DNA of 24,377 nt from Myxococcota bacterium (GTDB taxonomy: Bacteria; Myxococcota; JACRCW01). Positions 2,833 to 22,499 of this stretch are shown here, in pieces. The notes beneath the pieces were generated by a model, which made no database searches, was not told where the DNA came from, and saw nothing but the letters and a program-made list of their open reading frames with translations. Within the stretch, counting starts at the first letter, position 1; every line of letters begins with the position of its first letter. Position numbers and translations under genes: made by a program. Location of the stretch: NCBI GenBank assembly GCA_040752415.1, contig JBFMGU010000164.1, forward strand, positions 1 through 24,377. The letters are read 5' to 3'.

Positions 2833-5235
<2,403 letters not shown>

Positions 5236-5287
5236 CGGATGGAACCCGGGCCCGCGCCGTGCCACAACCCGTCGGCGAGGGCCTGCC

Positions 5288-7752: not shown

Positions 7753-10650
7753 TCACGGAGGGCACGGAGGCTCCACCACGCTCACCACGCTGCTGCCGTT
7801 GAAGAACATCTTCCCACCCACCGCCACGGCGGAGAGCGGCGGTTGCGCCAAGGGCACGTGCGCCAGCAGCGTGGGCGATTGTGCCGCTGCGTTCACCACC
7901 GCCACGCCGGTGCGCGTGCTGACAAACGCGGTCTGCCCGTCGAACGCGAGGACGCCGTGGGACTGCTCGGGCAGCACCAGGGGCCCATGCGCGACGAGGG
8001 AGCCTTCCGGGGAACCGTCGACGACGTCGAAGGCAAGCAACTCCTGCCCCGACCACGTGGCCACGCCCCACGGGTCGACCTGACCCACCACCGCCACCAC
8101 GCGACTTCCCGAGACCGCGAGCCCGGTGGTCTGTCCCGCCACGTCGCCTCGCGCGCGCACGCGGGGAATGAGCGGCGCGGTCACGTCGACGACGATAAGC
8201 CGGTAGGGAACGCCATTGCCCGCACCGCAGCCTTCGTCGATGAAGAGCGCGTTGATGGCGAGGTCGCGTCCGTCGTCGGAGAGCGCCAGGGTGGGGCGGT
8301 TGTTGGAGTTGCAGAGCGGAAGGGGGAAGGTGGCAACGGGAGGGGAGGGTTGGTCGAAGCCGGGCGCCAGCGTGGCCAGGTCGCGGACCTCCAGCGTGCC
8401 TTCACCCAGGCGGTAGAGCCAGCGCCCATCTCCGTCGACAACGCCGGGCACGGGGGAAAGCTGCACCGACGCATGGGGTTGCGGTTGCTGCGCCTGCGAA
8501 ACATCCATCACCAGCAGCGGACTGGACAGCGGCCCAAAACGCGCGCCGCGTTCAGTCAGTGAAAGGATGACGGGCGTCGTCGTCGTGGTACCCAGCTTGA
8601 ACAGGCCCGCCGCGCTGGGAAGCATGGCCCCCGCGAGCCACTGCGGCTCGTCGGGATTGCCCAGGTCCACCACGTGCACGCCGTGCGCATCCAGTGCCAC
8701 CACGCCGGTGGGCTGGAGCACCAACGTCTGCAACGCGCCATGCGCCGGCCCCGTCAGCGCGCGCAGCGGCGGGTCGCGGGTGGGTGTGAAGTCGTAGAAC
8801 CGCGCCGGGGAATCCCCCGTGCCGCCCACCGCCAGCGTGCTGCCGTTGACGTTGAGCAGGTCCCGCAGGTCTCCCACGTGATCCCGCGGAAGCGGCACGG
8901 TCTGACGGACGACGGGCGAGGTGGGGTCGCGCAGGTCGGTCACCCGCAGGACGCGCTGCGATCCCGCGACGCCAGACGTGTCTTCGATGTGGATGAGATG
9001 TCCCGCGAAGGCCGCGAAGCGCCCCATGTCCGGGCGCACGTTGAGGACGGCGCGGTTGCTGAAGTCGTCGGGATCCAGCACCGCGAGGAACTCGAAGGGA
9101 CAGCAATTGGAACGTGCGGCCACCAGGAGGTCCCCGTCGGCAAAGGCGCGGAAGCCCAGCGTGACTCCCGGCTGATCCACCAGCGGACCCGGCTCCAGCG
9201 GGTTGGTGATGTCCACGGTGGCCACGCCGTTGGCGTTGAAGATGAGGCGCGAGCGCTCCTCGTCGAGGGTCAGGCTGCTGACGGTGCTGATGCTGGTGAT
9301 GGGGGGCAGCTCCACGGGTGCGTCGGGGTTGCTCCAGTCCACCCTCCGCACGCCGTCGTTGCTGGTGGTGAAGAAGATGGGTGGCGCGGCGGCGCTGCTG
9401 CGGTCGAGGAACTCGTCCAGCGCGATGGTCCCGCGCCGGGTCAGCGTTCCGTCGGCGGCCCACTGCACATAGGTGAGCCCGAAGAAGGTCCACACCACGG
9501 CCGCGTCGGCGCTGAAGGGGTGCAGCGTGACGTCGTTCCCGTCCGGAAGTCGCAGGTGGCCCAGCGGCCGCAGCTCGCCGGCAATCCGCCCCACCAGCGT
9601 GAGGTCCGCGCTGCCCAACTCGGCAAAATGCACACTGGAGCTGCTGCTGGGGAACCCCGCCGGGTCCACCACGAGGATGCGGTCATCCGGCAGCACCAGC
9701 GCGCGTGACACCCGCGAGCCGAAACTCCGCAGCTCCGACACCACCGCCGGCTCCCGCTCCGTTCTCTCTCCGACGCACACGCCACCCACGCACTGGTCGT
9801 CCGCGGTGCACAGGTTCCCGTCGCTGCAGGGCGAACCGTCGGGCACGGGGAAGTCCGTGCACACGCCGTCCACGCACAGCGGGAAGCGCACGCATCCCTC
9901 CAACGTGCCGCACGGCGTCCCGTTCACCACCCAGTCATGGCTGCAGCCGCCAGTGGGGTCGCAGGCGTCGGCGGTGCAGGGGTTGTCGTCGTCACAGGCC
10001 AGCGGGTCGGTCACCGCGGTGCAGCCGGTGGCGGGGTTGCACAGGTCGCGCGTGCATGGGTCGCCGTCGTCGCAGGTGATGAAGCGGCCGTGGCACCCGC
10101 CTTCCACGCACGCATCGTCGACGGTGCACACGCTCCCGTCGTCGCAGGGATGCGTGTTGTGGTCATGCACGCATTGCTCGCGGGACAGGTTCCAGGAGTC
10201 GTCGGTGCAGGGGTTCCCGTCGTCACAGGGGGGAAGCGCGGTGCCGGTTCCGTCGAGGGCGACGCGGATGGATGACGCGTTGTCCGAGTTGTTCTCCACC
10301 ACCAGCGTGGCGGCCTCCGTGCTCTCGACGAGGGGCGCGAAGCGCAACGTCAGGGTCTCGGCCTCGCCGGCGGGAAGCTCACGTGCCTGCCCGGAGACCA
10401 CCGAGAACGCGGCGCTTCCCTCGAGGCGGATGACGCGGATGGTGACGGCGTCGGTGCCGGAGCTGCGCAGGGTGACCTGGCGTTCCCGCGTGCTGCCCGC
10501 GTAGGTGTCCCCGAACTCCACGCGTTCCTGGCTGGGCGTGAGCAGGCGCGTGGTGCGGGAGAGCGTGGGGTCCTCACAGCCGCACCCCGGCGCCAGCCAC
10601 GACGTCAACGCGGCCGCGACGAGCCAAGGGAACGTGGAAGGTGCGCGCAC
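7753..10650 (-). CDS. Large lipoprotein: ASH/choice-of-anchor-D Ig-like domain, CDDGNPCT.D.C Cys repeats, LVIVD-like beta-propeller
   Basis: GTG 10650 gives signal VRAPSTFPWLVAAALTSWLAPG-C-GC (alternative GTG 10698). 'VEFGDTYAGST...VTLRSSGT...LRFAP...LVVENN' is ASH-like. 5-6 Dictyostelium-type CTDC repeats at ~9770-10227. Repeated 'VDWSNPDAP / VDITNPLEP / TDLRDPTSP / VDLGNPDEP / VDVTAPLIP' blades. Confidence 0.82.
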   Translation of the reverse strand: MRAPSTFPWLVAAALTSWLAPGCGCEDPTLSRTTRLLTPSQERVEFGDTYAGSTRERQVTLRSSGTDAVTIRVIRLEGSAAFSVVSGQARELPAGEAETLTLRFAPLVESTEAATLVVENNSDNASSIRVALDGTGTALPPCDDGNPCTDDSWNLSREQCVHDHNTHPCDDGSVCTVDDACVEGGCHGRFITCDDGDPCTRDLCNPATGCTAVTDPLACDDDNPCTADACDPTGGCSHDWVVNGTPCGTLEGCVRFPLCVDGVCTDFPVPDGSPCSDGNLCTADDQCVGGVCVGERTEREPAVVSELRSFGSRVSRALVLPDDRILVVDPAGFPSSSSSVHFAELGSADLTLVGRIAGELRPLGHLRLPDGNDVTLHPFSADAAVVWTFFGLTYVQWAADGTLTRRGTIALDEFLDRSSAAAPPIFFTTSNDGVRRVDWSNPDAPVELPPITSISTVSSLTLDEERSRLIFNANGVATVDITNPLEPGPLVDQPGVTLGFRAFADGDLLVAARSNCCPFEFLAVLDPDDFSNRAVLNVRPDMGRFAAFAGHLIHIEDTSGVAGSQRVLRVTDLRDPTSPVVRQTVPLPRDHVGDLRDLLNVNGSTLAVGGTGDSPARFYDFTPTRDPPLRALTGPAHGALQTLVLQPTGVVALDAHGVHVVDLGNPDEPQWLAGAMLPSAAGLFKLGTTTTTPVILSLTERGARFGPLSSPLLVMDVSQAQQPQPHASVQLSPVPGVVDGDGRWLYRLGEGTLEVRDLATLAPGFDQPSPPVATFPLPLCNSNNRPTLALSDDGRDLAINALFIDEGCGAGNGVPYRLIVVDVTAPLIPRVRARGDVAGQTTGLAVSGSRVVAVVGQVDPWGVATWSGQELLAFDVVDGSPEGSLVAHGPLVLPEQSHGVLAFDGQTAFVSTRTGVAVVNAAAQSPTLLAHVPLAQPPLSAVAVGGKMFFNGSSVVSVVEPPCPP

Positions 10651-10743
10651 GCCGGGAATGGTGGCCGGCCACCAACCCGCGGGCAAGGTTTGCAGCACAC
10701 CCGTGACACGTTCTCCGGTTTGAGCGGTACCCGCGCGCCCGAT

Positions 10744-11055
10744 TCAGGGGTGGCCTCCAACGTCCGCCACGCGCACCAGGCGAACGCCGTCGGGTGTGCG
10801 CAGCAGGGTGTCGCACCAGGCGCGCGCGTCGTGTCGGTAGCGCACCTGCAGACCCACAACCTCGCCACGCTGGAACATTCCCTGGGCGCGCTCGAGCGTC
10901 ACCGGGTGGGTCAGGGCGTACTGCTGGGGGCCACCCTTGAGCACCACTTCGAGCACCTCCGTCAACGCCAGGAGGTCGACGAACAGCGCGGTGACCGCGT
11001 GGCCATCCAACAGCGCCATGTGCAGCGCGGGAAGGGGTTCACTGGGACTGGTCAC
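10744..11055 (-). CDS. Small hypothetical protein (~103 aa), last gene of the nap operon
   Basis: Protein-like 3' part of ORF 10744..11271 (TSPSEPLPALHMALLD...GLQVRYRHDARAWCDTLLRTPDGVRLVRV). GTG 11055 overlaps the upstream stop; alternative ATG 11019. GC3-rich codons. Confidence 0.7.
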   Translation of the reverse strand: MTSPSEPLPALHMALLDGHAVTALFVDLLALTEVLEVVLKGGPQQYALTHPVTLERAQGMFQRGEVVGLQVRYRHDARAWCDTLLRTPDGVRLVRVADVGGHP

Positions 11056-11632
11056 GGCCACCTCGCAACGAGCGATCAAGCGGGAGGATGAGGACGGCGT
11101 TGACGGGCGCGGGACAGGAAGCCTGACACTGCCCACACCCGGTGCAGAGCTCGTCGACCACCTGCGGCCGTTGCCCCGCGAGCGTGATGGCTCCCGGCAC
11201 CGGACAGCGCTCCCGGCACACCGAGCAGAACGAGTGCGCGGCCAGGCAATCCGACGCCTGGATGACCGCACGGCCCACCTTCATTCCCACGTCACGACGC
11301 AGCGCGCCCGTGGTGCAGGCAGTCACGCAGGGCGCATCCGGGCACATGCGACATCCGCTCTCGTGGAAGTCCAGCGTGGGAGTTCCCGCGGCCTGGCGCA
11401 GGCGCGCATCTGCCGGGACCACGCATCCCGTCGGGCACGCCGTGACGCACGCGTTGCACCGGTTGCAGCGCGAGAGGAATTCTGCCTCCGCCACGGCGCC
11501 GGGCGGCCGGAGGATCGGGAATGGGGGGGGACGCGCGGCCGGAGCGGGTGTGGCCGCGGGTTGCCAGTGCGCGAACAGCCGGCCGCGCAGCAGGTCCCGT
11601 CGGGACAGACGCGTCCCACCCGTCGTGGTCAT
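11039..11632 (-). CDS. NapF/NapG (MauM family) ferredoxin with four [4Fe-4S] motifs
   Basis: ATG 11632 in ATGA overlap with the upstream stop. SRRDLLRG; LRPPGA..E.EFLSRCNRCNACVTACP; CRMCPDAPCVTAC; C.....FCSVCRERCP; CTGCGQCQASCP. Confidence 0.88.
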   Translation of the reverse strand: MTTTGGTRLSRRDLLRGRLFAHWQPAATPAPAARPPPFPILRPPGAVAEAEFLSRCNRCNACVTACPTGCVVPADARLRQAAGTPTLDFHESGCRMCPDAPCVTACTTGALRRDVGMKVGRAVIQASDCLAAHSFCSVCRERCPVPGAITLAGQRPQVVDELCTGCGQCQASCPAPVNAVLILPLDRSLRGGRDQSQ

Positions 11633-12408
11633 GGACCGCCTCCGACGGGCGGCACATCCATCATCGGCCGGTGATCCAGCGCAGCCCCCGGTGCATGACA
11701 CTGCGTGCAGCTCTGCCGCGACGGGTGGCTGCTCTTGAGCCCGTCGGTACCACCCGGGCCGTGGCAGGACGTGCAGTTGGTGCGCATGAGGGTGGGATGG
11801 GGAATGGTGGGAGGAGCGCGGGGATGCGCGCGCGCGCCGAACGCGGGTGGCGGCACCGGCGCAAAGGCGTTCTCGGTGGCCACGGTGTCAACGGGAGGCG
11901 GGCCAAACTCGGCGGTGACGTCGGCGGGGACGTGGCACTGCGTGCAGTTGGTGTAGCTGGCGTGGCTCATCACCGGCGCGCGCGCGTTGCGGATGCGGGC
12001 ACCCCGGGCGTGGCAGTCAACGCAGGCCAGCACCCCGCGCGGCTCCACCGGGTGCGGAATGACCGGCGGTGCGCCGTCAAAGGCCCGTCGCTGCGCGCGC
12101 TCCGCCACGGCCTTCTCCCGCCCGCGGACCGGGTCCGGGATCTCCGCCAGGCGGTCCACCTCGGGCGCCAGTGCCGCCACGCTGTCCCGCCAGTGTGCAT
12201 TCCGGTTCATGGGGGTGACCGCCAGCGACGCATAGGTGGGCGCGGCGGCGGCCCCCACCTCGCTGCGCACGGACTCATGACGGGCAACGGGCGCGGGGTT
12301 GTCGCGCGTACCGCTCACGAACCCCACCAGCACCACGGTCATCACCACCGCCATGAAGATGTGCAGCGCGCGACCGCTCTCCGCCCCGCCCGGCACCGCG
12401 GCGCTCAT
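11629..12408 (-). CDS. Tetraheme cytochrome c made of two NapB-like diheme units, with N-terminal membrane anchor/signal
   Basis: ATG 12408 in ATGA overlap with the napA stop. Hydrophobic ALHIFMAVVMTVVLVGFV; motifs CVDCH, CTQCH, CTSCH, CTQCH; NapB-type APPVIPH and APPTIPH. Confidence 0.88.
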   Translation of the reverse strand: MSAAVPGGAESGRALHIFMAVVMTVVLVGFVSGTRDNPAPVARHESVRSEVGAAAAPTYASLAVTPMNRNAHWRDSVAALAPEVDRLAEIPDPVRGREKAVAERAQRRAFDGAPPVIPHPVEPRGVLACVDCHARGARIRNARAPVMSHASYTNCTQCHVPADVTAEFGPPPVDTVATENAFAPVPPPAFGARAHPRAPPTIPHPTLMRTNCTSCHGPGGTDGLKSSHPSRQSCTQCHAPGAALDHRPMMDVPPVGGGP

Positions 12409-14813
12409 GGCTTGGCGCTCCCCGTCTTCCGCTGCACGCGCACCGCGCACTTCTTGTAGTCGGGCTGCTTGGAGATGGGGTCATGGGCTTCCAGCGTGAC
12501 CAGGTTCACCAGCATCCGCTCGTCGAAGAACGGTACGAACAGCGACCCGGGTGGCGGCTGCCCCCGCCCCTCCATCCACACCGGCACGTCCACGCTCCCG
12601 CGGCGCGAGACCAGCGTGACGACGTCACCGTTCTGCACGCCGAGCCGGTGCGCGTCCTCCCGGTTCATCTCCACGTAGGCCTGCGGCATGGCGCGCCGGA
12701 GCTGCGGGACGCGCATGGTCATGGTGCCGGTGTGCCAGTGCTCCAGCACGCGGCCGGTGCACAACCAGAAGGGGAATTCCTCGTCGGGAACCTCGGGGGG
12801 CGGCTCGTAGGGGTGGAACCAGATGAGCGCGCGGTCGTCCTTGGTCACGGAGTGGTAGAACTGGAACTTCCGCCCCTTCTCCACGAAGGGGTCGTCGAAT
12901 TCCGCAAAGCGGTACTGCGTCTCCCGCCAGGAGCCGTCCGCCTGCTGCACCACCGGCCAGCGCAGGCCGCGGGCCTTCACGTATTCCTGGTAGGGCGCCA
13001 GGTTCTTGTGCTTCTTCGTCGTGAACCGGCGGTACTCCTCGAACAGCCGCTCGTCGACGTTGATGTCGTAGTAGCGCTCCCATTGCCAGGTGGGCACTTC
13101 GCGCCCGTTGGCGTCGGCCATGTGGAACAGGAACTTCCCGTCCTTGTCCTTCATGCCTTCAAAACCCAGCTCCAGGAGGCGGTGCGCCACGGCCACCGTC
13201 TGCCAACAGTCATCCCGCGCCTCTCCCGGCGGCTGCACCATGCGGAACCACTGCTGCGTCCGCCGCTCCGAGTTCCCGAACATCCCGTTCTTCTCCACCC
13301 ACAGCGCACTCGGCAGGATCAGGTCCGCATGCCGCGTGGTGGCGGTGGGATACACGTCGGAGACGATGAGGAACTTGTCCTCCAGCTTGCGGCTGGCCAG
13401 GAACAGCGCGTTGGTGTTGGGCAGCGACTGGCCCGGGTTGCTGACCTGCACCCAGATGGTGTGGATGTCGCCGCCCTCACCGCTGGGCGTGGAGAAGCGC
13501 TTCCACATCTCCACGGTGTGATGACCCGGCTTCGGCGCGACCCGACCGGCCGGCACGTTCCAGATCTCCTCGGCGTGCTGCCGGTCCTTCTCGTTGGCCA
13601 CGTTGCCGCCGCCGGGCAGCCCATGGGCCAGCGTTCCCACCTCGCGCACCGTGCCGCACGCCGAGGGCTGGCCGGTGAGGCTGGTGGGGTTGTCGCCCGG
13701 CCTCCCGAAGTGACCGCTCAGCAGGTGGATGCCGTGCACCAGCCGATTGATCGCCGTGCCGCGCGTGTGCTGGTTCATGCCCATGCACCACAGGCTGGTG
13801 ATGCGCAGCTCCCGTCGACCGAAGAGGTCGGCGAGCATGCGGATGTCGTTGGCGCGCACGCCCGAGATCCGCTCCACGTGCTCCGGGGTGTAGACGGAGA
13901 GCTCACGACGGTACTCGTCAAAGCCCATCTCCTGGCCATTCAGCGAGGGCGTCTCGGTGTCCTTGCGGAAGTTGCAGAACGACTTCACGAACTGTGCGTC
14001 ATGGGTCCCGCGCTCCAGCAACAGGTGGGCAATCCCGTTGGCCACGGCCACGTCGGTGTGGGGACGGAACTGCAGGTAGTGCTGGCAGTGGTCGGTGGTG
14101 CGCGTGCGCCGTGTGCCAATGTCGACGAGCGTGACCTGCTCCCCGCGGGAACGGCGGTCGATGACGCGGGAGAAGAGCACCGGGTGCATCTCCGCCGGGT
14201 TGTTGCCCCACATGATGAGCACGTCGCACTTGTCCAGGTCGGTGAACGTGCCGGCCGGCTCGTCGACACCGTAGGTGCTCATGAAACCGGTGACCGCGCT
14301 GGCCATGCACAGGCGCGCGTTGGGATCGATCTGGTTGCTGCCCAGGCCGCCCTTCATGAACTTCTGCGCGGCATAGCCTTCCGGGATGGTCCACTGGCCG
14401 CTGCCGTACATGGCAAAGCCCTTGGGGTCCTTCAGCACGCGCTTGGCCACCACGTCCAACGCCTCGCTCCACGAGATGGGGACGTGTGTGCCACCACGCT
14501 TGAGCAGCGGCGTCCGCAAGCGGTCCTTGCCGTAGAGGATGAGGCCCACGTGATAGCCCTTCACGCAGCACAGGCCCTTGTTGACCTCCGCCAGCGGGTC
14601 GCCCGCCACCGCCACCACGCGCCCGTGCTGCACGCCCACCTGCACGTGGCACCCGGTCCCGCAGAAGCGGCACGGCGCCTTCTGCCACCGCGTGTCCCCC
14701 TCAAGGGGCTGGGCCTGGGCCAGGCGGGAGGCAGCGGCGGTGGCGGTGGCCATGGCCGAAAGCTTGAGGAATGTCCGACGGTCGGTCTCCAAGGTCTCTC
14801 CCATGCGTTCCAT
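12405..14813 (-). CDS. napA: Periplasmic nitrate reductase catalytic subunit (Mo-bisPGD, [4Fe-4S])
   Basis: Tat motif DRRTFLK; KAPCRFCGTGC...NKGLCCVKGY; Mo-ligand region DPNARLCMASA; WGNNPAEMHP; MGMNQHTRG; SLTGQPSACGT.REVG; LCTGRVLEHWHTGTMT; DPISKQPDYKKCAV. Confidence 0.97.
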   Translation of the reverse strand: MERMGETLETDRRTFLKLSAMATATAAASRLAQAQPLEGDTRWQKAPCRFCGTGCHVQVGVQHGRVVAVAGDPLAEVNKGLCCVKGYHVGLILYGKDRLRTPLLKRGGTHVPISWSEALDVVAKRVLKDPKGFAMYGSGQWTIPEGYAAQKFMKGGLGSNQIDPNARLCMASAVTGFMSTYGVDEPAGTFTDLDKCDVLIMWGNNPAEMHPVLFSRVIDRRSRGEQVTLVDIGTRRTRTTDHCQHYLQFRPHTDVAVANGIAHLLLERGTHDAQFVKSFCNFRKDTETPSLNGQEMGFDEYRRELSVYTPEHVERISGVRANDIRMLADLFGRRELRITSLWCMGMNQHTRGTAINRLVHGIHLLSGHFGRPGDNPTSLTGQPSACGTVREVGTLAHGLPGGGNVANEKDRQHAEEIWNVPAGRVAPKPGHHTVEMWKRFSTPSGEGGDIHTIWVQVSNPGQSLPNTNALFLASRKLEDKFLIVSDVYPTATTRHADLILPSALWVEKNGMFGNSERRTQQWFRMVQPPGEARDDCWQTVAVAHRLLELGFEGMKDKDGKFLFHMADANGREVPTWQWERYYDINVDERLFEEYRRFTTKKHKNLAPYQEYVKARGLRWPVVQQADGSWRETQYRFAEFDDPFVEKGRKFQFYHSVTKDDRALIWFHPYEPPPEVPDEEFPFWLCTGRVLEHWHTGTMTMRVPQLRRAMPQAYVEMNREDAHRLGVQNGDVVTLVSRRGSVDVPVWMEGRGQPPPGSLFVPFFDERMLVNLVTLEAHDPISKQPDYKKCAVRVQRKTGSAKP

Positions 14814-15115
14814 CAGGCGTCGACCTCCCGGTCCCGTCGTCGACGACGCACCGGCGCCGCCTCGGACCCGGGGTCCACGTCCGAGAAGTCCACGCTCACC
14901 ACGTCAATGAACCGCACGCCGCGCACGAGGGGCAGCTCCTCTTCCAGCCGGCGGATGCCCTCGCCCAGCGTTGCGGTCTCCAGCACGGCGGGAACGCGCC
15001 GGCCTGCCTGCTCCGGCCCCAGCACCAGTCCCGCGTGCGCGCCCAACACGCTCAGGGCGTGCTCGCGCTCGTCGACATCGTCGCTCAAGGTGATCACCAG
15101 CGCGCTGACCGGCAT
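14813..15115 (-). CDS. napD: NapD-like Tat signal-peptide chaperone (100 aa)
   Basis: MPVSALVITL...GRRVPAVLET...LPLVRGVRFIDVVSVDF fits the NapD ferredoxin-like pattern. GGAG RBS before ATG 15115; TGATG overlap with napA; canonical position upstream of napA. Confidence 0.8.
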   Translation of the reverse strand: MPVSALVITLSDDVDEREHALSVLGAHAGLVLGPEQAGRRVPAVLETATLGEGIRRLEEELPLVRGVRFIDVVSVDFSDVDPGSEAAPVRRRRRDREVDA

Positions 15116-15142
15116 CCGCGGCTCCCGTGCTCCGCGCACCGG

Positions 15143-15158
15143 TCCAAGGGACGTGCCA
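15143..15158 (-). promoter_or_regulatory. Sigma-54 (-24/-12)-type promoter for the napDA operon, variant -12
   Basis: Minus strand reads TGGCACGTCCCTTGGA: perfect TGGCACG, correct 10-nt spacing, TTGG instead of TTGC; 27 nt upstream of the napD ATG. Confidence 0.6.
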
Positions 15159-15228
15159 ACCCCGCGGCGCCCGGTGGCGTGCGGCCAGTGCGCGAGATTT
15201 TCGCCGGGCACCCGGGCAGCGCTCCTGC

Positions 15229-15268
15229 GGTGGCGCAAGAAGTGCGGGGACGCATGACGTTCGCCACC
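15229..15268. promoter_or_regulatory. Dyad GGTGGCG-N7-TGCG-ggga-CGCA-N7-CGCCACC, candidate activator (bEBP) binding site
   Basis: Inverted repeat read directly between the two divergent promoters; a third half-site CGCG-AGATTTT-CGCC at 15191-15205. Confidence 0.5.
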
Positions 15269-15290
15269 TGGCGGTGAGCCGGGACCTGGC

Positions 15291-15306
15291 TGGTATGCGC
15301 GTTGCT
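15291..15306 (+). promoter_or_regulatory. Sigma-54 (-24/-12) promoter for the cytochrome-NrfC-NrfD operon
   Basis: TGGTATGCGCGTTGCT matches TGGYAY-N5-TTGCW with exact GG-N10-GC spacing, 52 nt before ATG 15359. Confidence 0.7.
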
Positions 15307-15358
15307 CCGGCGCTCGCCGGCCTGGTGCATCTCCGTGGATGGCCGGGGAGGACGAGGA

Positions 15359-15979
15359 ATGGTGGACCGCCGTTGGAGTCGCCACGTGCTTGCGCTGCTG
15401 CTGGTGGGCGTGGGCGGAGCCTGTGGTGGCGCAGCGGCAACACCCGCGGCGCCGTCGACCTCGACGTCGCGGGGAGCGCTTCACGCGGTGGAGATCCGCG
15501 CGCACCCCGGTCTGGGACGCCTGGACGGCACCGTGGAGGACGTCCGCGGCGCGCCCGCGGGGGTCCGCTGCAACACGTGTCACACGTCGTGGGTGACGGG
15601 CGCGCCCGCGCGGAGGCCCCAGGAGCTCGACGAGTTCCACGAGGACATGATCTTCCGTCACGGCAACCTGGCGTGCGCCTCCTGCCACGACCCCGACAAC
15701 CACGAGCGGGTGCGCCTGGCCAGCGGCGAGACCTTCCCGCTTTCCGAGACCATGGCCCTGTGCGCGCAGTGTCATGGCCCGCAGCACCGCGACTACCGCA
15801 ACGGCTCGCACGGGGGCATGAGCGGGTACTGGGACCTCACGCGCGGCCCGCGGGTGCGCAACCACTGCGTCAACTGTCACGACCCCCACGCGCCGGCGTG
15901 GGACCAGGTCCTGCCCGCGCCGCCGCCGCGTGACCGCTTCTTGACGTCGTCACACCGGGAGGGTGCGCATCATGAGTGA
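15359..15979 (+). CDS. Tetraheme cytochrome c lipoprotein
   Basis: GGAGGACGAGGA RBS then ATG 15359; signal RRWSRHVLALLLVGVGGA-C; CNTCH, CASCH, CAQCH, CVNCH. Confidence 0.9.
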   Translation: MVDRRWSRHVLALLLVGVGGACGGAAATPAAPSTSTSRGALHAVEIRAHPGLGRLDGTVEDVRGAPAGVRCNTCHTSWVTGAPARRPQELDEFHEDMIFRHGNLACASCHDPDNHERVRLASGETFPLSETMALCAQCHGPQHRDYRNGSHGGMSGYWDLTRGPRVRNHCVNCHDPHAPAWDQVLPAPPPRDRFLTSSHREGAHHE

Positions 15980-16898
15980 CGCCGCGGGAAAGCGGCCGGC
16001 GGACCCGGCGCGTCGCACCACGCTCAAGGTCCTGGGCGCTTCGCTGGGAGCGGCGGCGTTTGCGCGGGCGGCGGCGCCGCTCACGGAGTGGAGCGGTGAG
16101 CTCTCGGTGGCGGAGTTCCTCCAGAAGCACTACCGGGAGCTGACGCCCGACGAGATGAAGGCCGTGCTCGCGCGGATTGAGGAGGAGACGCAGCGCAAGA
16201 CCGGCGTGGCGGTCAGCGTGAGCGACCTGCGCCCCCAGCCCGGCGTGAAGTTCGGCTATGCGCTGAACCTGAGCATCTGCATCGGGTGTCGACGGTGCGC
16301 GGAGGCCTGCCACCAGGAGAACAACCACGACCGCGCCTCGCACAACTCGTACATCCGCGTCCTGGAGATGACCCAGGGCAGCCTGGACATGGAGAAGGGC
16401 AACGCCACCTACCAGCATCCCGTGCCACAGCCCGGCCACTACTACATGCCGGTGCAGTGCCAGCAGTGCGACAACGCTCCGTGCGTGAAGGTCTGCCCGG
16501 TGGAGGCCACCTGGAAGGAGAAGGATGGCGTCGTGGTGGTGGACTACAACTGGTGCATTGGCTGTCGTTATTGTGAGGCGGCCTGTCCCTATCATGCGCG
16601 ACGTTTCAACTGGCACGCGCCGCAGGTCCCGGCGGAGGAGATCAATCCCAACCAGGGCTACCTGAGCAACCGGCTGCGGCCCAAGGGTGTCGTTGAGAAA
16701 TGCCACTTCTGCCTCCACCGCACGCGGGCGGGGCGGCTGCCGGCGTGCCTGGAGGCGTGTCCCACCGGGGCGCGCGTGTTCGGGAACCTGCTGGACCCCA
16801 ACAGCGAAATCCGCTGGGTGCTGCAGAACAAGCGCGTGTTCGTCCTCAAGGAAGAGCTCGGGACACAGCCCAGCTTCTTCTACTTCTTTGATGAGTAG
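15972..16898 (+). CDS. Tat-exported 4x[4Fe-4S] protein, NrfC/DsrO/PsrB family
   Basis: RRTTLK plus h-region; CIGCRRCAEAC; PVQCQQCDNAPCVKVCP; CIGCRYCEAACPY; VEKCHFC..R....PACLEACP. ATG 15972 overlaps the upstream stop. Confidence 0.92.
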   Translation: MSDAAGKRPADPARRTTLKVLGASLGAAAFARAAAPLTEWSGELSVAEFLQKHYRELTPDEMKAVLARIEEETQRKTGVAVSVSDLRPQPGVKFGYALNLSICIGCRRCAEACHQENNHDRASHNSYIRVLEMTQGSLDMEKGNATYQHPVPQPGHYYMPVQCQQCDNAPCVKVCPVEATWKEKDGVVVVDYNWCIGCRYCEAACPYHARRFNWHAPQVPAEEINPNQGYLSNRLRPKGVVEKCHFCLHRTRAGRLPACLEACPTGARVFGNLLDPNSEIRWVLQNKRVFVLKEELGTQPSFFYFFDE

Positions 16899-16901
16899 GC
16901 C

Positions 16902-18161
16902 ATGTCCGCCACCGTTCCCGAGCCGTCCGTGCGACACCTGCAGAGCTATCCCCGCTTCCTCTGGCGTTCGCTGGTGCTCGCGTTCGACGGGAGCTGGGCC
17001 TTCTACCTGTGGATGGCCACGCTGACGGCGCTGGCGTTGGTGGGGTTCAACGCGTGGGCGCAGCAGGTGGTGGGGGGCATGGCGCTCACGGGAATGAGCG
17101 ACCACGTCTCGTGGGGACTCTACATCGCCAACTTCACCTTCCTGGTGGGCCTGGCCGCGGGCGCGGTGATGATGGTGATTCCCGCCTACCTCTACGACGA
17201 CCACGAGATGCACGACGTGGTGATCATCGGCGAGCTGCTGGCGGTGGCAGCGCTGGTGATGTGCCTGGCTTTTGTGACGGTGGACCTGGGCCGCCCGGAC
17301 CGCTTCTGGCACCTCATCCCCGGGCTTGGGCGCTTCCACTGGCCGGTGTCGATGTTGACCTGGGACGTGGTGGTGCTGAACGGCTACCTGCTGCTGAACC
17401 TGCACATCTGCGGGTACATCATCTACACGCGCTACACCGGTCGCCAGCCGGACAAGCGCTGGTACCTGCCGTTCGTCTTCATCTCCATTGTCTGGGCCAT
17501 CTCCATCCACACCGTGACGGCGTTCCTCTACAGCGGCCTGGGCGGTCGGCCGTTCTGGAACAGCGCCATCCTGGCCCCGCGTTTCCTGGCCTCGGCGTTC
17601 GTTTCCGGACCCGCATTCGTGATCGTCACGCTGCAGCTCATCCGAAGGGTCACGGGCTTCCACGTCGGCAACGGGCCCATCCGCACGCTGTTCGGCATTG
17701 TGCGGGTCACCTGCCTGCTGAACCTGTTCCTGCTGTTGGCCGAGGTGTTCACGGAGTTCTACACGGGCGGGTCGCACGTGAGCGCGGCGCGTTACCTGTA
17801 CTTCGGGCTGCACGGAAAGAACGGTCTGGTGCCGTGGATCTGGACCGCCATCACGCTGAACTCCGTGGCGGCGGTGCTGTTCCTGCTGCCGGCCACGCGG
17901 GAGCGCCTCTGGCTGCTGGACCTCGCCTGCGTGATGACGTTCGTGGGGGTGTGGATTGAGAAGGGGATGGGCCTCATCATCCCGGCGTTCATTCCCAGCA
18001 CGCTGCACGAGATCGTGGAGTATTCGCCAAGCATCGTGGAGTGGAAGGTGGCGGTGGGCATCTGGGCGCTGGGCCTGATGACCTTCACCATTGCGTTGAA
18101 GGTTGCGCTCCCCATCCTGATGCAACGGGTGACACTGCAGCGTGACGAAGGGACCGAATGA
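16902..18161 (+). CDS. nrfD: NrfD/PsrC/DsrP-family integral membrane quinol-interacting subunit
   Basis: About 10 hydrophobic segments; TGMSDHVSWGLYIANFTFLVGLAAG; VDLGRPDRFWH; PRFLASAF.SGPA; starts 3 nt after the Fe-S gene. The symbol denotes the family; it looks DsrP-like. Confidence 0.9.
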   Translation: MSATVPEPSVRHLQSYPRFLWRSLVLAFDGSWAFYLWMATLTALALVGFNAWAQQVVGGMALTGMSDHVSWGLYIANFTFLVGLAAGAVMMVIPAYLYDDHEMHDVVIIGELLAVAALVMCLAFVTVDLGRPDRFWHLIPGLGRFHWPVSMLTWDVVVLNGYLLLNLHICGYIIYTRYTGRQPDKRWYLPFVFISIVWAISIHTVTAFLYSGLGGRPFWNSAILAPRFLASAFVSGPAFVIVTLQLIRRVTGFHVGNGPIRTLFGIVRVTCLLNLFLLLAEVFTEFYTGGSHVSAARYLYFGLHGKNGLVPWIWTAITLNSVAAVLFLLPATRERLWLLDLACVMTFVGVWIEKGMGLIIPAFIPSTLHEIVEYSPSIVEWKVAVGIWALGLMTFTIALKVALPILMQRVTLQRDEGTE

Positions 18162-18221
18162 ACGGCGCGGTGGGGCGCTCACGGTCTGGGACTGAGCAGG
18201 GCTGACATTGCTGGAGACGTG

Positions 18222-19334
18222 ATGACATCCCTTCCCATTGTTTGCCCGGCGGGCGCCGCGAACCAGCCTGCCACCTGTCCCATCAGCAAGGAGGCCTGCC
18301 CGGGGTTCTGCATCTTCTCCGATGTGATGGAGAGTGTTCGGCTCGGCGTTGCCCTGTTCAACCTGGAGCAACGCACCCTGACGTTCCTGAACACCTCAGC
18401 ACGCGAGATCTTCAAAGACGCCCCGGAGCCAATCACGTTCGACTCGCTGTGCCGGCTGTTGGTTCCCAGGGACGTCGACATCCGCACCTTCACACCACCC
18501 CTGACGCCGGAACCGCTGCGGCTCAAGAACCGGATTGTTGGCTACACGCTCTACCAATCCCGGGGGTACGCCTGGGCCTTTCTGCGTGACGTGACGGAGA
18601 AGGCCCGCCTTGAGTCCATTGCGGAGGCGGTCGAGCTCATGAACAGCCTCGGCTTCGTCTTCTCGGCGGTCCGCCATGAATTGGGCAATCCCATCAATTC
18701 GGTCAAGGCCGCGTTGACGGTCCTCCGAGCCAACTTCGACCGCTTTTCTCGCGAGCAGCACGCCGACTACCTGGACCGCATGCTGTTGGAGATCGGGCGG
18801 GTGGAACACCTCCTGCACTCGATGAAGAGCTTCTCGATGTACGAACGCATGCAACCCCAGCCCGTCGACATTGAGACATTCCTCAAGGACTACCAGCGGC
18901 TAATCCGAGACGAAGCCGAGCGCAGGAACCTTGCGCTGCGGATTCAGTGCGCCCCCGACGTCCGGGCACACTGTGATCCACGGGCGCTGCAGCAGGTGTT
19001 TCTGAACCTCTTCGCCAATGCCGCCGACGCGCTGGAGGGTCAGGCGGACGCCGAGGTGCGGATCGAGGTGGACCGGTTGGACAACCTGGTGCGCATTTGC
19101 TTCAGCGACAACGGGCCGGGTCTCTCCGAGGAGCAGAAGGAGGCGCTGTTCAAGCCTTTCCACACGTCAAAGGAGAAGGGCACCGGCCTGGGCCTGGTCA
19201 TCACCAGGAAGCTGCTGGCTCAGATGCAGGGCACCATCACCGTCGAGTCCTCTGAGGGGCGCGGCCTCTCGGCGATCATTACCCTTCTGCGTGCGGGCGA
19301 ACCGCCCTCGCGGGCCGCCGGGGAGCGGGCGTGA
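18222..19334 (+). CDS. Soluble sensor histidine kinase with N-terminal 4-Cys cluster and PAS-like domain
   Basis: GGAG RBS, GTG 18219/ATG 18222; H-box AVRHELGNPINS; QQVFLNLFANAADA; SDNGPGL; LFKPFHTSKEKGTGLGL; no transmembrane segment. Confidence 0.93.
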   Translation: MTSLPIVCPAGAANQPATCPISKEACPGFCIFSDVMESVRLGVALFNLEQRTLTFLNTSAREIFKDAPEPITFDSLCRLLVPRDVDIRTFTPPLTPEPLRLKNRIVGYTLYQSRGYAWAFLRDVTEKARLESIAEAVELMNSLGFVFSAVRHELGNPINSVKAALTVLRANFDRFSREQHADYLDRMLLEIGRVEHLLHSMKSFSMYERMQPQPVDIETFLKDYQRLIRDEAERRNLALRIQCAPDVRAHCDPRALQQVFLNLFANAADALEGQADAEVRIEVDRLDNLVRICFSDNGPGLSEEQKEALFKPFHTSKEKGTGLGLVITRKLLAQMQGTITVESSEGRGLSAIITLLRAGEPPSRAAGERA

Positions 19335-19337
19335 CAG

Positions 19338-20795
19338 ATGAAGAAGCGCAACGTCCTCATGGTGGACGACGACACCTTGCTCACCCGCGCGGTGGTGGAT
19401 CACCTCTCGTCGGGAGAAACCGACGTTCTCACCGCGCACAGCGCGTCGGACGCCATGCGCATCTGCGCGGAGCGGGCGGTCGATGTTGTCATCCTTGATC
19501 AGCGGCTCCCTGACGGGCCGGGCCACGCGTTATGCCAGCCCATCCTGCAGATGCAGCCCACGGCCAAGATCATCTTCATCACGGCGTTCCCGTCATTCGA
19601 CAACGCGGTGAAGGCGCTCAAGGCCGGCGCCCACGACTACCTGAGCAAGCCCTTTGACCTCGGTGAGCTCCACCACGCGGTCAGTCGCTGTCTCAAGGTG
19701 CTTGAGCTGGAAAAGGTGGAGCGCGTCCACGCATACCGGACCACGCGCGACGGGCAGGAGGTGAGCCTGATTGCCGGACCGGGGATGGACGCCGTGCGCG
19801 CGATGATCGATGTGGCGGCGCGGGTTGACGCTCCCGTCCTTGTCACCGGGGAGACGGGCACCGGCAAGAACCTTGTTGCCAAGGCGATCCACCACGGCGG
19901 GGCGCGCCGGAGTCGCCCGTTCATCAGCCTGAACCTGGCGTCCGTGCCCGAGAACCTCATTGAGGCGGAGCTCTTTGGTTGGGAGCGGGGTGCGTTTACC
20001 GGCGCGGACCGGGGCCGCGACGGCCTCGTCGAGATGGCCGAGGGCGGGACGCTGTTCCTCGACGAGGTGGGCGAGATGCCCCTCCACCTGCAGGCCAAGC
20101 TGCTCACGGTCCTGGAGGAGAAGGAGATCCGCCGGCTGGGAGGAAGGAGCACCCGCGTGGCCGACGTGCGCATCCTGGCGGCGACCAAGGCGGACCTCGA
20201 CGAGCTCGTCAAGGCACGGCGCTTCCGCAGCGACCTCTACTACCGCCTCAACGTCATCCGCGTGCATCTCCCTCCGCTCAGGGAACGAACCTCGGACCTG
20301 CCGCGCCTGTGCATCCACCTTCTTGAGCGGATGACCGGCCCGGGACGCGCACCCCAGCTTGCGCCGGGGGAGCTCGAGGTGCTCATGGCCTACCCGTGGC
20401 CGGGCAACGTGCGGGAGCTGCGCAACGTGCTGGAGCGCTCCCATCTCCTGCACCACGCGCCACTCCGCCCCTCGGAGCTTCTCGCAACCGAGCCACGCGC
20501 GCCTGCCACGGAGCCGTTTCGCTCGGGGGTAGCGCGCGCCGCGGAACAGGACGGGAAGGCGCGCCCACCGGCAGGTCAGGAGAACGTCACGCCACTCACC
20601 AGCGAGGAGCTCTCCCTCGAGCAGGTCGAGCGCGGGCACATCGAGCGGGTATTCCACCGGCATGGCCGCAACCTCGCACGCACCGCACGAGCGCTCGCGA
20701 TCTCCCTCTCCACGCTGAAGCGCAAGGTGAAGCGGTACGGCCTGCGCGACGATACCGAGGCCTCCGGGGACGCGGTGGCGGCCGGTCCAGGATGA
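19338..20795 (+). CDS. Sigma-54-dependent NtrC-family response regulator (REC-AAA+-Fis HTH)
   Basis: VLMVDDD...ILDQRLPD...DYLSKPF; GETGTGKNLVA; ELFGWERGAFTGA; LFLDEVGEM; FRSDLYYRLNV; WPGNVRELRN; NLARTARALAISLSTLKRK. Confidence 0.96.
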   Translation: MKKRNVLMVDDDTLLTRAVVDHLSSGETDVLTAHSASDAMRICAERAVDVVILDQRLPDGPGHALCQPILQMQPTAKIIFITAFPSFDNAVKALKAGAHDYLSKPFDLGELHHAVSRCLKVLELEKVERVHAYRTTRDGQEVSLIAGPGMDAVRAMIDVAARVDAPVLVTGETGTGKNLVAKAIHHGGARRSRPFISLNLASVPENLIEAELFGWERGAFTGADRGRDGLVEMAEGGTLFLDEVGEMPLHLQAKLLTVLEEKEIRRLGGRSTRVADVRILAATKADLDELVKARRFRSDLYYRLNVIRVHLPPLRERTSDLPRLCIHLLERMTGPGRAPQLAPGELEVLMAYPWPGNVRELRNVLERSHLLHHAPLRPSELLATEPRAPATEPFRSGVARAAEQDGKARPPAGQENVTPLTSEELSLEQVERGHIERVFHRHGRNLARTARALAISLSTLKRKVKRYGLRDDTEASGDAVAAGPG

Positions 20796-20813: not shown

Positions 20814-20908
20814 ATTGAGCGGCGCCCGGGTCAGAAACGTCCGTCAGTCCGCCCTCGGGTTGACGGTACCTCGGCGTGCGCGTGGGCGGCGTGGTGCGCG
20901 CGACAACG

Positions 20909-20924
20909 TGGCCCGCCCGTTGCT
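20909..20924 (+). promoter_or_regulatory. Sigma-54 (-24/-12) promoter
   Basis: TGGCCCGCCCGTTGCT, exact GG-N10-GC with TTGCT; followed by RBS AAAGGAGG and GTG 20979. Confidence 0.7.
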
Positions 20925-20978
20925 TGGGGTGGGGACGCCGGGACCGCGGCGGGGCGCGGAAGGTGAAAGGAGGTCGCC

Positions 20979-22220: not shown

Positions 22221-22499
22221 AGACACCGGTTGGGTGCGGGGATGAGAAGATCCCACAGCGCGCTCCTGGCAGGATTTCTTGTCGCGCCGACGACAGCGGA
22301 CTGCGACAACCGCGTGAAGGTGTCGACGTCGAGGACAGCGGCGCCGCGGTGGTTGCGCTCTCTCAGGATCCTTCCGACGTGTTCTGCGTGTTGGTCAGCG
22401 TGGAGCGCTGCGTTCGAATGTGGTGCGTTTACAGTACGTGGCCGCGCGCGCAGGCGCGTTCTCAGGGTGGCGGACACGACCTCGCCGCCAGGTACACGC

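Follow-up and report, generated by a model that had tools for sequence, protein, structure and literature searches.

A cytochrome–NrfC–NrfD trio as the probable quinol dehydrogenase of a putatively NapC/NapGH-independent Nap in a Myxococcota bacterium

There are two main respiratory nitrate reductases, of which the periplasmic Nap is one, and whether the reduction of nitrate by Nap yields energy depends on how electrons enter it. To our knowledge, only NapC (or CymA) and NapGH are established as inputs to Nap, and Nap with NapC is viewed as non-electrogenic. Here we describe a nap locus encoded without either of them, found on a contig of 24,377 nucleotides (nt) from a Myxococcota bacterium (JBFMGU010000164.1, assembly GCA_040752415.1; C73 in our numbering), which was analysed at its full length and is called the window hereafter. 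The genome comprises 11.0 Mb in 520 contigs, with about 70% G+C and an estimated completeness of 96.8%. Two divergent operons form the locus: a leftward one on the minus strand, napD-napA-napB2-ferredoxin-orfX, in which napB2 encodes a tandem, tetrahaem NapB, and a rightward one on the plus strand, cyt4-nrfC-nrfD, in which cyt4 encodes a tetrahaem cytochrome c. With a probability of roughly three in four, the two operons would constitute one respiratory unit, a NapC/NapGH-independent Nap whose dedicated quinol dehydrogenase is the trio of Cyt4, NrfC and NrfD, electrons flowing to NapA from menaquinol by way of four Fe-S clusters and eight haems.

The exchange of the quinol-oxidising module of a nap cluster has a published precedent in Caldithrix abyssi, whose NapC-free cluster is described with a Rieske/cytochrome b module (PMC5317091). 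Closer to the present locus, a study from 2023 (PMC10732223) presents, in one sentence and a figure, a multihaem cytochrome-4Fe4S-NrfD(-actD) cluster downstream of the Nap genes in two Planctomycetota metagenome-assembled genomes (MAGs), and suggests a role in respiratory electron transfer; neither a survey nor a wiring scheme for Nap is given there, a tandem NapB is not brought into connection with the cluster, and the clusters shown are likely of the same type as that of the window. A review of the NrfD family (PMC8076601) does not mention ‘Nap’, and a literature search whose scope left out subscription Nap reviews found no other description of this Nap type beyond that one sentence. The cluster type has thus been noticed in passing in the literature, where it is neither analysed nor named. 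Among the complexes that share the layout of the trio, Qrc has been reported to be electrogenic (PMC6303296).

In the wiring proposed here, menaquinol would be oxidised at the 10-helix, DsrP/ActC-type NrfD, and the electrons would enter the four [4Fe-4S] clusters of NrfC, exported by the twin-arginine translocation (Tat) pathway, pass to the membrane-tethered, NrfB-like tetrahaem Cyt4 and from there to the membrane-anchored tandem NapB, which would hand them over to the Mo-bis(pyranopterin guanine dinucleotide) (Mo-bisPGD) site of NapA for the reduction of nitrate to nitrite. The nitrite would then be reduced by the NrfHA encoded elsewhere in the genome, and NapD, the NapF/NapG-like ferredoxin and OrfX would act in the cytoplasm as maturation or accessory factors. 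The gene content, the cofactor motifs, the export signals, the lack of the usual modules and the clade-wide linkage of the two operons are observed; the order and the direction of the electron transfer, the physical complex and the regulation we infer. The original prediction, made from the letters of the window, had drawn the same wire (quinol, NrfD, NrfC, tetrahaem lipoprotein, double NapB, NapA), and this wiring has gained support, strongly from synteny and also from the single clade of the NrfD proteins and the lack of NapH.

Six-frame profile searches over the whole genome located matches to PF03264 (NapC/NirT/NrfH) in only two places, one on contig C101, where a 171-amino-acid (aa), 4-haem nrfH lies directly upstream of a 477-aa nrfA, and the other on C157, where a 482-aa, 5-haem ImcH-like protein is encoded among cytochromes of 10-12 haems. 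No protein of the window matched PF03264 by Pfam scan, and no NapH (TIGR02163) over the cut-off was found anywhere in the genome (best 56.8 bits vs 213). The claim that the window lacks napC and napH is therefore borne out, and the wider check that had been suggested for napC, napH and nrfA adds only the nrfH beside nrfA and the ImcH-like gene. Since NapA is single-copy and no NarG exceeds its cut-off in the genome (best 79.8 bits vs 1084), Nap is, as judged by these profiles, the one respiratory nitrate reductase that can be recognised. Besides nrfD, the searches brought up a single NrfD-family gene, the actC of an alternative complex III (ACIII)-cytochrome oxidase cluster on C94, and the genome also has a PF13447 multihaem protein. 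The same scarcity of the usual inputs is seen in 13 further genomes that carry the cluster: in none of them was NapH over the cut-off (14 of 14 negative with that of the window), and the NapC/NirT-family genes, one or two in each of 11 genomes, lie on contigs other than that of nap or at least 250 kb away from it; in the remaining two, Haloferula rosea and a Verrucomicrobiaceae MAG, no match to that family turned up at all.

For a view across phyla, a tandem-NapB alignment was scanned against one genome per species (185,579 species), and the best 80 of 491 loci, ranked by their similarity to the NapB2 of the window, were kept and tallied by tblastn with the window proteins. According to the record titles, some of which look unreliable in the case of MAGs, they belong to Myxococcota, Planctomycetota and Verrucomicrobiota. 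The Myxococcota-type loci include those of Sorangium cellulosum So ce56 and four other Sorangium strains, of Archangium MAGs and of Myxococcus sp. RHSTA-1-4, Labilithrix, Polyangiales and Bradymonadales; others come from Phycisphaerales, Pirellulaceae, Gemmataceae and Fuerstiella, and from Pelagicoccus mobilis, Haloferula rosea, Luteolibacter, Akkermansiaceae, Chthoniobacterales and Limisphaerales. None of the 80 is an Anaeromyxobacter record, and the similar clusters mentioned at the outset for Anaeromyxobacter-type genomes were not confirmed. The full trio lies upstream of napA and divergent from it in 50 loci, upstream on the nap strand in 10 and downstream on the nap strand in one; a contig end cuts it in four, and in the remaining 15, where no trio was seen, no more than 704 nt of contig are left upstream of napA. 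That is, the trio stands beside napA in all 65 tandem-NapB loci with readable upstream DNA, complete in 61 and on the nap strand in 11, which is the result of the synteny survey of napA with this NrfCD subfamily that had been proposed as a check. Identity to the window proteins in this set amounts to 62-77% for NrfD, 63-79% for NrfC and 59-73% for NapA. No match to NapG, a Rieske protein, cytochrome b, NrfH, NrfA or eHao appeared in the 80 loci, and the sole NapH-like match, in locus L056, is weak.

Within the phylum, a sample of 401 genomes was searched, of which 117 have an NrfD homologue (E <= 1e-40) and 51 a NapA-like protein (E <= 1e-120). Besides the genome of the window, 18 encode an NrfD 66-72% identical to that of the window, and in 17 of these a NapA of 68-75% identity lies within about 2 kb of it. 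The eighteenth, G211, has an internally deleted remnant of both operons (L133, G211:C108, 7670-11354), with nrfD intact, the last 84 residues of nrfC, a truncated cyt4, residues 234-445 of NapA, and napB2, napF and orfX present. The trio behaves as a constant unit, intact in 19 of 20 loci, the contig end cutting that of G060, where nrfD-napD-napA-napB2-napF-orfX all run in one direction; the full divergent layout of the window was found in three of the close loci checked by tblastn. The distribution is patchy, since the one sampled genome of the window’s own family offers nothing closer than a module of 45% identity and, on another contig, a NapA-like gene of 48% identity. Other NapA loci of the phylum read nrfH-nrfA-...-napA-napD, after which come napG-napH in L051 and a multihaem gene in L048, or Rieske-cytochrome b-PF13447 (eHao-like) multihaem-NapA-195-aa 4-haem NapB-like (L041, G082:C1, 7674-13803; L046, G061:C191). 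With NapGH, nrfH or Rieske/cytochrome b standing there, a quinol module encoded next to napA is the rule in the phylum, and its type varies.

In a maximum likelihood tree of 79 NrfD proteins, obtained by a quick search and rooted on a single long-branch row, all 63 Nap-linked NrfDs group in one clade (SH-aLRT 99), sister (SH-aLRT 87) to two modules in a canonical-NapB/eHao context, and the 14 remaining modules, none beside nap, fall outside the clade and its sister pair. It had been proposed that a co-occurrence mainly with another terminal reductase would speak against the wiring; this holds for the distant modules of 44-60% identity and not for the Nap-linked clade. Among the distant relatives, family f15 has a 44-50%-identical cytochrome-NrfC-NrfD module in 65 of 67 genomes; in three of its loci a gene for a monohaem cytochrome c of 97-100 aa comes just past nrfD (on the same strand in L031 and L032, on the opposite one in L035), and the nap genes form nrfH-nrfA-napA-napD(-napGH) clusters elsewhere in the genome, far from the module, which may be, from this arrangement, a second quinol:cytochrome c oxidoreductase.

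As regards the members of the trio, the four CXXCH motifs of Cyt4 are invariant across 33 homologues, which are anchored by an N-terminal lipobox Cys or a transmembrane helix, the copy of the window having a Cys in a lipobox-like position; its likeness to NrfB is weak (PDB 2ozy, E 0.006; NF008659, 23.5 bits, cut-off 184). NrfC has 16 Cys and a twin arginine at residue 14, resembles PsrB (PDB 2vpw, E 1e-36), has no molybdopterin domain by Pfam over its 308 aa and keeps 63-79% identity across phyla; it scores 191.9 bits against DsrO (NF045797), marginally below the cut-off of 200, 163.6 against QrcC (cut-off 400) and 128.9 against the equivalog NrfC (cut-off 377.6). NrfD belongs to the NrfD/PsrC family (PF03916, 136.7 bits vs a cut-off of 25.8) and exceeds the cut-off for DsrP (NF045798, 433.7 bits, cut-off 350), those for QrcD (53.9, cut-off 570) and NrfD (32.5, cut-off 347.6) lying far above its scores. 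Its AlphaFold2 model (pLDDT 81) superposes over its full length on ActC (TM-score 0.75, E 3e-11), the closest solved structure, and only partially on the 8-helix PsrC (TM-score 0.35); the match to ActC agrees with the fold of two four-helix bundles that characterises the family. D128, D155 and K354 are invariant and S150 nearly so; a quinone-site Asp/Ser/Asp and a mid-membrane Lys are listed for DsrP1 in the review of the family (PMC8076601), and the residues of the window’s NrfD match them by spacing only.

The names under which these membrane subunits are deposited deserve a comment. Homologues 67-75% identical to the NrfD of the window (P0141, P0155, P0174, P0183, P0212 and P0214), from Polyangiales, Bradymonadaceae, Phycisphaerales, Planctomycetota and Poriferisphaera, are called by NCBI ‘sulfate reduction electron transfer complex DsrMKJOP subunit DsrP’, the equivalog NF045798 evidently capturing the Nap-linked clade. 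The name is misleading, since no DsrM or DsrK adjoins the trio (a genome-wide search for these two was not made), its cytochrome is tetrahaem, no DsrA (TIGR02064) exceeds the cut-off in the genome (best 29.7 bits vs 392.85), which leaves the label with no context of sulfur metabolism, and the neighbour is Nap.

On the other side of the intergenic region, NapA is matched over its full length by NF010055 (871.3 bits, cut-off 904) and TIGR01706 (839.7, cut-off 930.55), the next family being Fdh-alpha with 424 bits, and contains the Pfam domains Molybdopterin, Molydop_binding, Molybdop_Fe4S4 and TAT_signal; these domains and the neighbouring genes for NapD and a NapB-type partner are what is expected of a NapA. 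A selenocysteine in the NapA of relatives was considered and rejected, the ‘1 TGA’ flagged being the napD stop just 5' of the napA start and not an in-frame codon for that residue; in locus L022 (G322:C1, 12011-14376), the reading frame of the G322 NapA breaks into two, a sign of either a frameshift or an error in sequencing. NapB2 comprises four CXXCH motifs and one N-terminal transmembrane segment (residues 14-32) and belongs to the NapB family (PF03892, 28.7 bits vs a cut-off of 25.1). Each of its halves aligns to the canonical 171-aa NapB of a related genome (E 2e-6 and 8e-4), the two are 39% identical to one another (E 6e-8), and the motif APPxIPH...CxxCH...CTQCH.P occurs twice, with two CXXCH per unit. 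NapB2 is thus a fused double NapB with a transmembrane anchor, in agreement with what had been read from the sequence at the outset. Its family has at least 491 proteins in a collection of 5.8 billion, where they are named NapB or ‘diheme cytochrome c precursor’.

The remaining proteins of the leftward operon are less conventional. The NapD of the window has no Pfam match of its own, and a BLASTP comparison with the canonical NapD of L025 was not used (E 0.055, wrong register); its identity consequently rests on the profile matches of the orthologues, which are present in 37 loci with 31-59% identity and of which 9 of the 17 scanned have PF03927 as their top family over the full length, one of them above the cut-off. 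The third-position G+C (GC3) of napD is 0.88. The ferredoxin scores below the cut-offs of both NapG (88.3 bits, cut-off 269) and NapF (67.9 bits, cut-off 102) and gives a tblastn match (over at least 35% of the window protein) in only part of the related loci, none being found, for example, in Sorangium L055; it is treated here, on these scores, as an accessory NapF/G-like protein. OrfX is coding-like (GC3 0.85 over 10744-11040) and has 67 homologues, encoded in related loci just after napB2 or napF. A signal peptide is absent, and a Pfam scan of 35 members brought up no credible family, the one weak match being Phage_Gp84 (E 0.0064). Its AlphaFold2 model (pLDDT 88.4) is a small alpha/beta fold of the order beta-alpha-beta-alpha-beta3, to which no clear relative was found with Foldseek against the PDB (best E 0.09) or with VIA (best Z 6.5, among generic alpha/beta sandwiches and PAS-like domains).

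Between napD and cyt4 there are 246 nt, inside which lie two sigma-54-type -24/-12 elements. The one facing napD, TGGCACGTCCCTTGG, departs from TGGCAC-N5-TTGC at one position and coincides with an island of conservation in the intergenic alignment, where G368, G346 and G322 have TGGTCCGCCTCTTGC; the one facing cyt4, TGGTATGCGCGTTGC, aligns with the TGGCACGGACACTGC-type elements of three relatives, and the two blocks are the conserved islands in the alignment with these relatives. When the 50 divergent loci were scanned for sites that keep GG and GC and deviate at no more than two other positions, a site toward nap was found in 19, one toward cyt4 in 23 and both in 18, nearly all of the latter Myxococcota-type by record title; the density of sites is 1.67 per kb vs 0.43 per kb in the remaining 801 kb of these loci. 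In this organism, to judge by these elements, back-to-back sigma-54 promoters probably drive both operons, whose co-regulation is a reasonable inference for Myxococcota and not a general property of the cluster. The histidine kinase and the NtrC-type activator encoded next to nrfD perhaps act on these putative promoters. A kinase/activator-like pair follows nrfD in L086, adjoins it in L094 and was not seen in the other 78 of the 80 loci, and the pair was discarded as a core part of the cluster because of its presence beside nrfD in only two of them. No transmembrane segment was seen by eye in the kinase, and its N-terminus has four Cys (CPAGAANQPATCPISKEACPGFC) before a PAS-like stretch, which could form a redox- or O2-sensing Fe-S or metal site.

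Several of these results weigh against the proposed unit, or against parts of it. The 80 loci are a biased sample, and because they are the most similar of 491, the perfect association of trio and nap describes this clade and not all tandem NapBs; indeed, more distant 4-haem NapB-like proteins pair with Rieske/cytochrome b (L041). On the side of regulation, TGGCACGTCCCTTGG has a G for the conserved C at -12, most loci of Planctomycetota and Verrucomicrobiota have no sigma-54-type site, and the -24/-12 motif is not enriched over the whole window (35 matches vs 34.3 expected), so that what speaks for the sites is their position and conservation. The pairwise distances of NapA and NrfD are correlated (Mantel r 0.76, with none of 999 permutations as high), which is co-inheritance and not interaction, and counts as weak evidence since linked genes co-vary whether they interact or not. 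Finally, the module is not intrinsically Nap-specific: copies of 44-60% identity adjoin other multihaem or monohaem cytochromes, and in two genomes of family f6 it sits between napA-napB and an eHao-like octahaem gene.

This last point is the basis of the reading that comes next after the proposed one, still an improbable one in our estimation, according to which the trio would be a general quinol:cytochrome c oxidoreductase for another periplasmic acceptor (NrfA, an eHao-like or some other multihaem protein), placed beside nap by shared regulation, and Nap would be fed by NrfH, ACIII or another donor. The neighbours of the 44-60%-identical modules, namely eHao-like octahaem proteins, Rieske/cytochrome b, large Big_2 multihaem proteins and a 97-aa cytochrome c, fit it, as do the nrfHA, the ACIII and the PF13447 multihaem protein of the window’s own genome. 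A case of this kind is L025 (G107:C550, 471-10428), where napD-napA(913 aa)-napG-napH-napB are followed by cytochrome-nrfC-nrfD, a 483-aa PF13447 (eHao-like) gene and a 150-aa open reading frame (ORF); in L024 (G067:C110, 1-8859), the contig starts inside napA and NnrS comes after the cluster, and in L028, from a third f6 genome, an eHao-like gene and ScdA precede the module, and no nap gene was seen. Because NapGH is present in the cluster, the L025 module, 58-60% identical to that of the window as is that of L024, may serve nitrite rather than nitrate reduction, and this arrangement is possibly the ancestral context. The Nap-linked clade differs from all of them in adjoining nap in each of the 65 readable loci, 11 times on the same strand, with no eHao, NrfA, NrfH or Rieske match in the 80 loci; moreover, two carriers have no NapC/NrfH-family gene whatsoever, and the degraded cluster of G211 has lost parts of both operons together.

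Less probable still is that NapB2 itself is the quinol dehydrogenase, an analogue of NapC/NrfH/CymA, with the trio as an auxiliary or parallel input. An N-terminal transmembrane helix and four haems do reproduce the overall layout of NapC/NrfH, and there is a weak likeness to NrfH (PDB 2j7a, E 0.012; TIGR03153, 24 bits), but the six-frame search with PF03264 missed NapB2, its two halves are each a unit of the NapB type, the first haem motif comes only about 95 residues after the helix, and the strict co-occurrence with a complete quinol-oxidising trio would be left unexplained. Just as little credit is due, and perhaps slightly less, to the notion that the molybdoenzyme is a NapA-like enzyme for another oxyanion and the cluster a different respiratory system. 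The scores below the equivalog cut-offs (871 vs 904 and 840 vs 931) fit it, and the first of them, just under its cut-off, also weighs against the unit proposed here; yet, over the full length, the NapA models reach about double the score of the next family, partners of the NapD and NapB types accompany the enzyme, and the NrfHA of the genome is available to consume the nitrite. The proposed unit of trio and Nap is the reading that we retain.

The features of the locus are collected in Table 1; gene calls in the window combined a listing of ORFs, codon-position G+C and Pfam/NCBIfam scans.

Table 1. Genes and putative regulatory elements of the nap locus, in positions of the window.
Feature	Positions	Strand	Basis or remark
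OrfX, conserved cytoplasmic protein, about 100 aa	10744..11055	-	start GTG 11055 or ATG 11019
NapF/NapG-like ferredoxin, 197 aa, four Cys clusters, N-terminal SRRDLLRG	11039..11632	-	17 Cys
NapB2, membrane-anchored tandem (tetrahaem) NapB, 259 aa	11629..12408	-	4x CXXCH, PF03892
NapA catalytic subunit, 802 aa, Tat signal	12405..14813	-	NF010055, Pfam domains
Divergent NapD chaperone, 99 aa	14813..15112	-	PF03927 matches of orthologues
Sigma-54-type -24/-12 element facing napD, TGGCACGTCCCTTGG	15144..15158	-	motif and conservation
Sigma-54-type -24/-12 element facing cyt4, TGGTATGCGCGTTGC	15291..15305	+	motif and conservation
Cyt4, tetrahaem c-type cytochrome, lipoprotein/membrane-anchored, NrfB-like, 206 aa	15359..15979	+	4x CXXCH
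NrfC/DsrO-like periplasmic 4x[4Fe-4S] protein, 308 aa, Tat signal	15972..16898 (alternative GTG 15963)	+	16 Cys, RR
NrfD-family quinol-interacting membrane subunit, DsrP-like, 419 aa, 10 helices	16902..18161	+	PF03916
Candidate regulator, cytoplasmic histidine kinase	18219..19334	+	Pfam HisKA/HATPase_c
Candidate regulator, sigma-54 NtrC-type response regulator	19338..20795	+	Response_reg/Sigma54_activat/HTH_8

The head-to-head arrangement of tetrahaem lipoprotein, 4x[4Fe-4S] protein and NrfD, as originally predicted, is confirmed in gene content and strands, and the tight coupling noticed in the leftward operon follows from the ORF coordinates: napD and napA have one base in common (TGATG), napA/napB2 and napB2/ferredoxin overlap by ATGA each, and, for orfX, a start at GTG 11055 gives an overlap of 17 nt with the ferredoxin gene, one at ATG 11019 a gap of 19 nt. 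In the rightward operon, cyt4 extends 17 nt into nrfC when the latter starts at its GTG and 8 nt when it starts at its ATG, and for cyt4 itself the ATG at 15359 is a likelier start than the TTG at 15302. The rest of the window is unrelated to the nap locus at 5198-7687, which encodes a secreted protein of 800-830 aa with a lysyl oxidase domain (PF01186, 150 bits) and CARDB, and at 7753-10698, which encodes a 981-aa protein with Dictyostelium-type Cys-rich repeats and an ASH domain. At 20844-22256, two long ORFs overlap on opposite strands: the codon-position G+C caller retained the one on the plus strand (21084-22220), whose start resembles a response-regulator receiver domain, and discarded that on the minus strand, of 470 aa and with no Pfam match.

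What would follow from this wiring? The cluster is probably, on the comparative evidence, a little-described route feeding electrons to nitrate reduction, namely an input of a third kind, NrfBCD/DsrOP-like, which goes strictly together with a Nap type of its own, marked by the tandem, membrane-anchored NapB, in at least three phyla common in soils, sediments and waters; thousands of NrfD homologues exist in metagenomes. Marker-gene surveys that score napAB alone overlook the trio, and the ‘DsrP’ label could wrongly suggest sulfur metabolism. Several carriers are in culture, by record title Sorangium cellulosum So ce56, Myxococcus sp. RHSTA-1-4, Haloferula rosea KCTC 22201 and Pelagicoccus mobilis KCTC 13126, with Bradymonas sediminis as a candidate by protein name only, which makes the wiring testable, and such a simple quinol:nitrate system would be a place to ask: do NrfD-type subunits translocate protons? 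In this respect, there is some chance, though a rather slim one, that the trio, NapB2 and NapA form one stable membrane supercomplex, in which charge translocation is coupled to the oxidation of menaquinol by the 10-helix subunit, the one with the invariant mid-membrane Lys354. Were that so, a widespread Nap type would conserve energy, unlike Nap with NapC, and ‘napA’ in Myxococcota, Planctomycetota and Verrucomicrobiota would mark true nitrate respiration and not redox balancing.

Compared with the known systems, the trio is reminiscent of the NrfBCD of the E. coli-type NrfABCD in that a small multihaem cytochrome, a Tat-exported 4-cluster ferredoxin and a cofactor-free NrfD would feed a periplasmic N-oxide reductase. 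It differs in the terminal enzyme, which would be NapA via NapB2 instead of NrfA (nrfA lies on another contig with nrfH), in the haems of the cytochrome (four in Cyt4, five in NrfB), in the scores against the NrfB, NrfC and NrfD equivalogs, all below their cut-offs (23.5 vs 184, 128.9 vs 377.6 and 32.5 vs 347.6), and in the helices of NrfD, 10 as in ActC and DsrP, those of the E. coli protein being given as a predicted 8 in the review cited above (PMC8076601). The best-scoring family is that of DsrMKJOP, with DsrP over and DsrO marginally under the cut-off and with the same 10 helices, from which the locus departs by the lack of adjoining DsrM/DsrK, by a tetrahaem NrfB-like cytochrome vs the trihaem DsrJ, and by a histidine kinase and Nap as neighbours. 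With NapC and NapGH the trio would share the presumed role between quinol and NapB/NapA, and also the place relative to napA that these occupy in other clusters of the phylum, in spite of belonging to unrelated protein families; the window cluster has no NapC/NirT or NapH gene, its ferredoxin reaching 88.3 bits vs 269 for NapG and the best NapH of the genome 56.8 vs 213. ACIII (ActABC...) and QrcABCD likewise combine a cytochrome, an Fe-S protein and an NrfD-type subunit, ActC being the closest structure, and are distinguished by a molybdopterin-like ActB/QrcB domain, which is absent here, as are ActD, ActE and ActF, the QrcC and QrcD models scoring below their cut-offs. As for the C. abyssi cluster, as described in PMC5317091, it differs from that of the window by its Rieske/cytochrome b together with NapM and NapGH, and finds its likeness in L041 and L046, which wire a NapC-free Nap via a bc-type module within the same phylum as the window.

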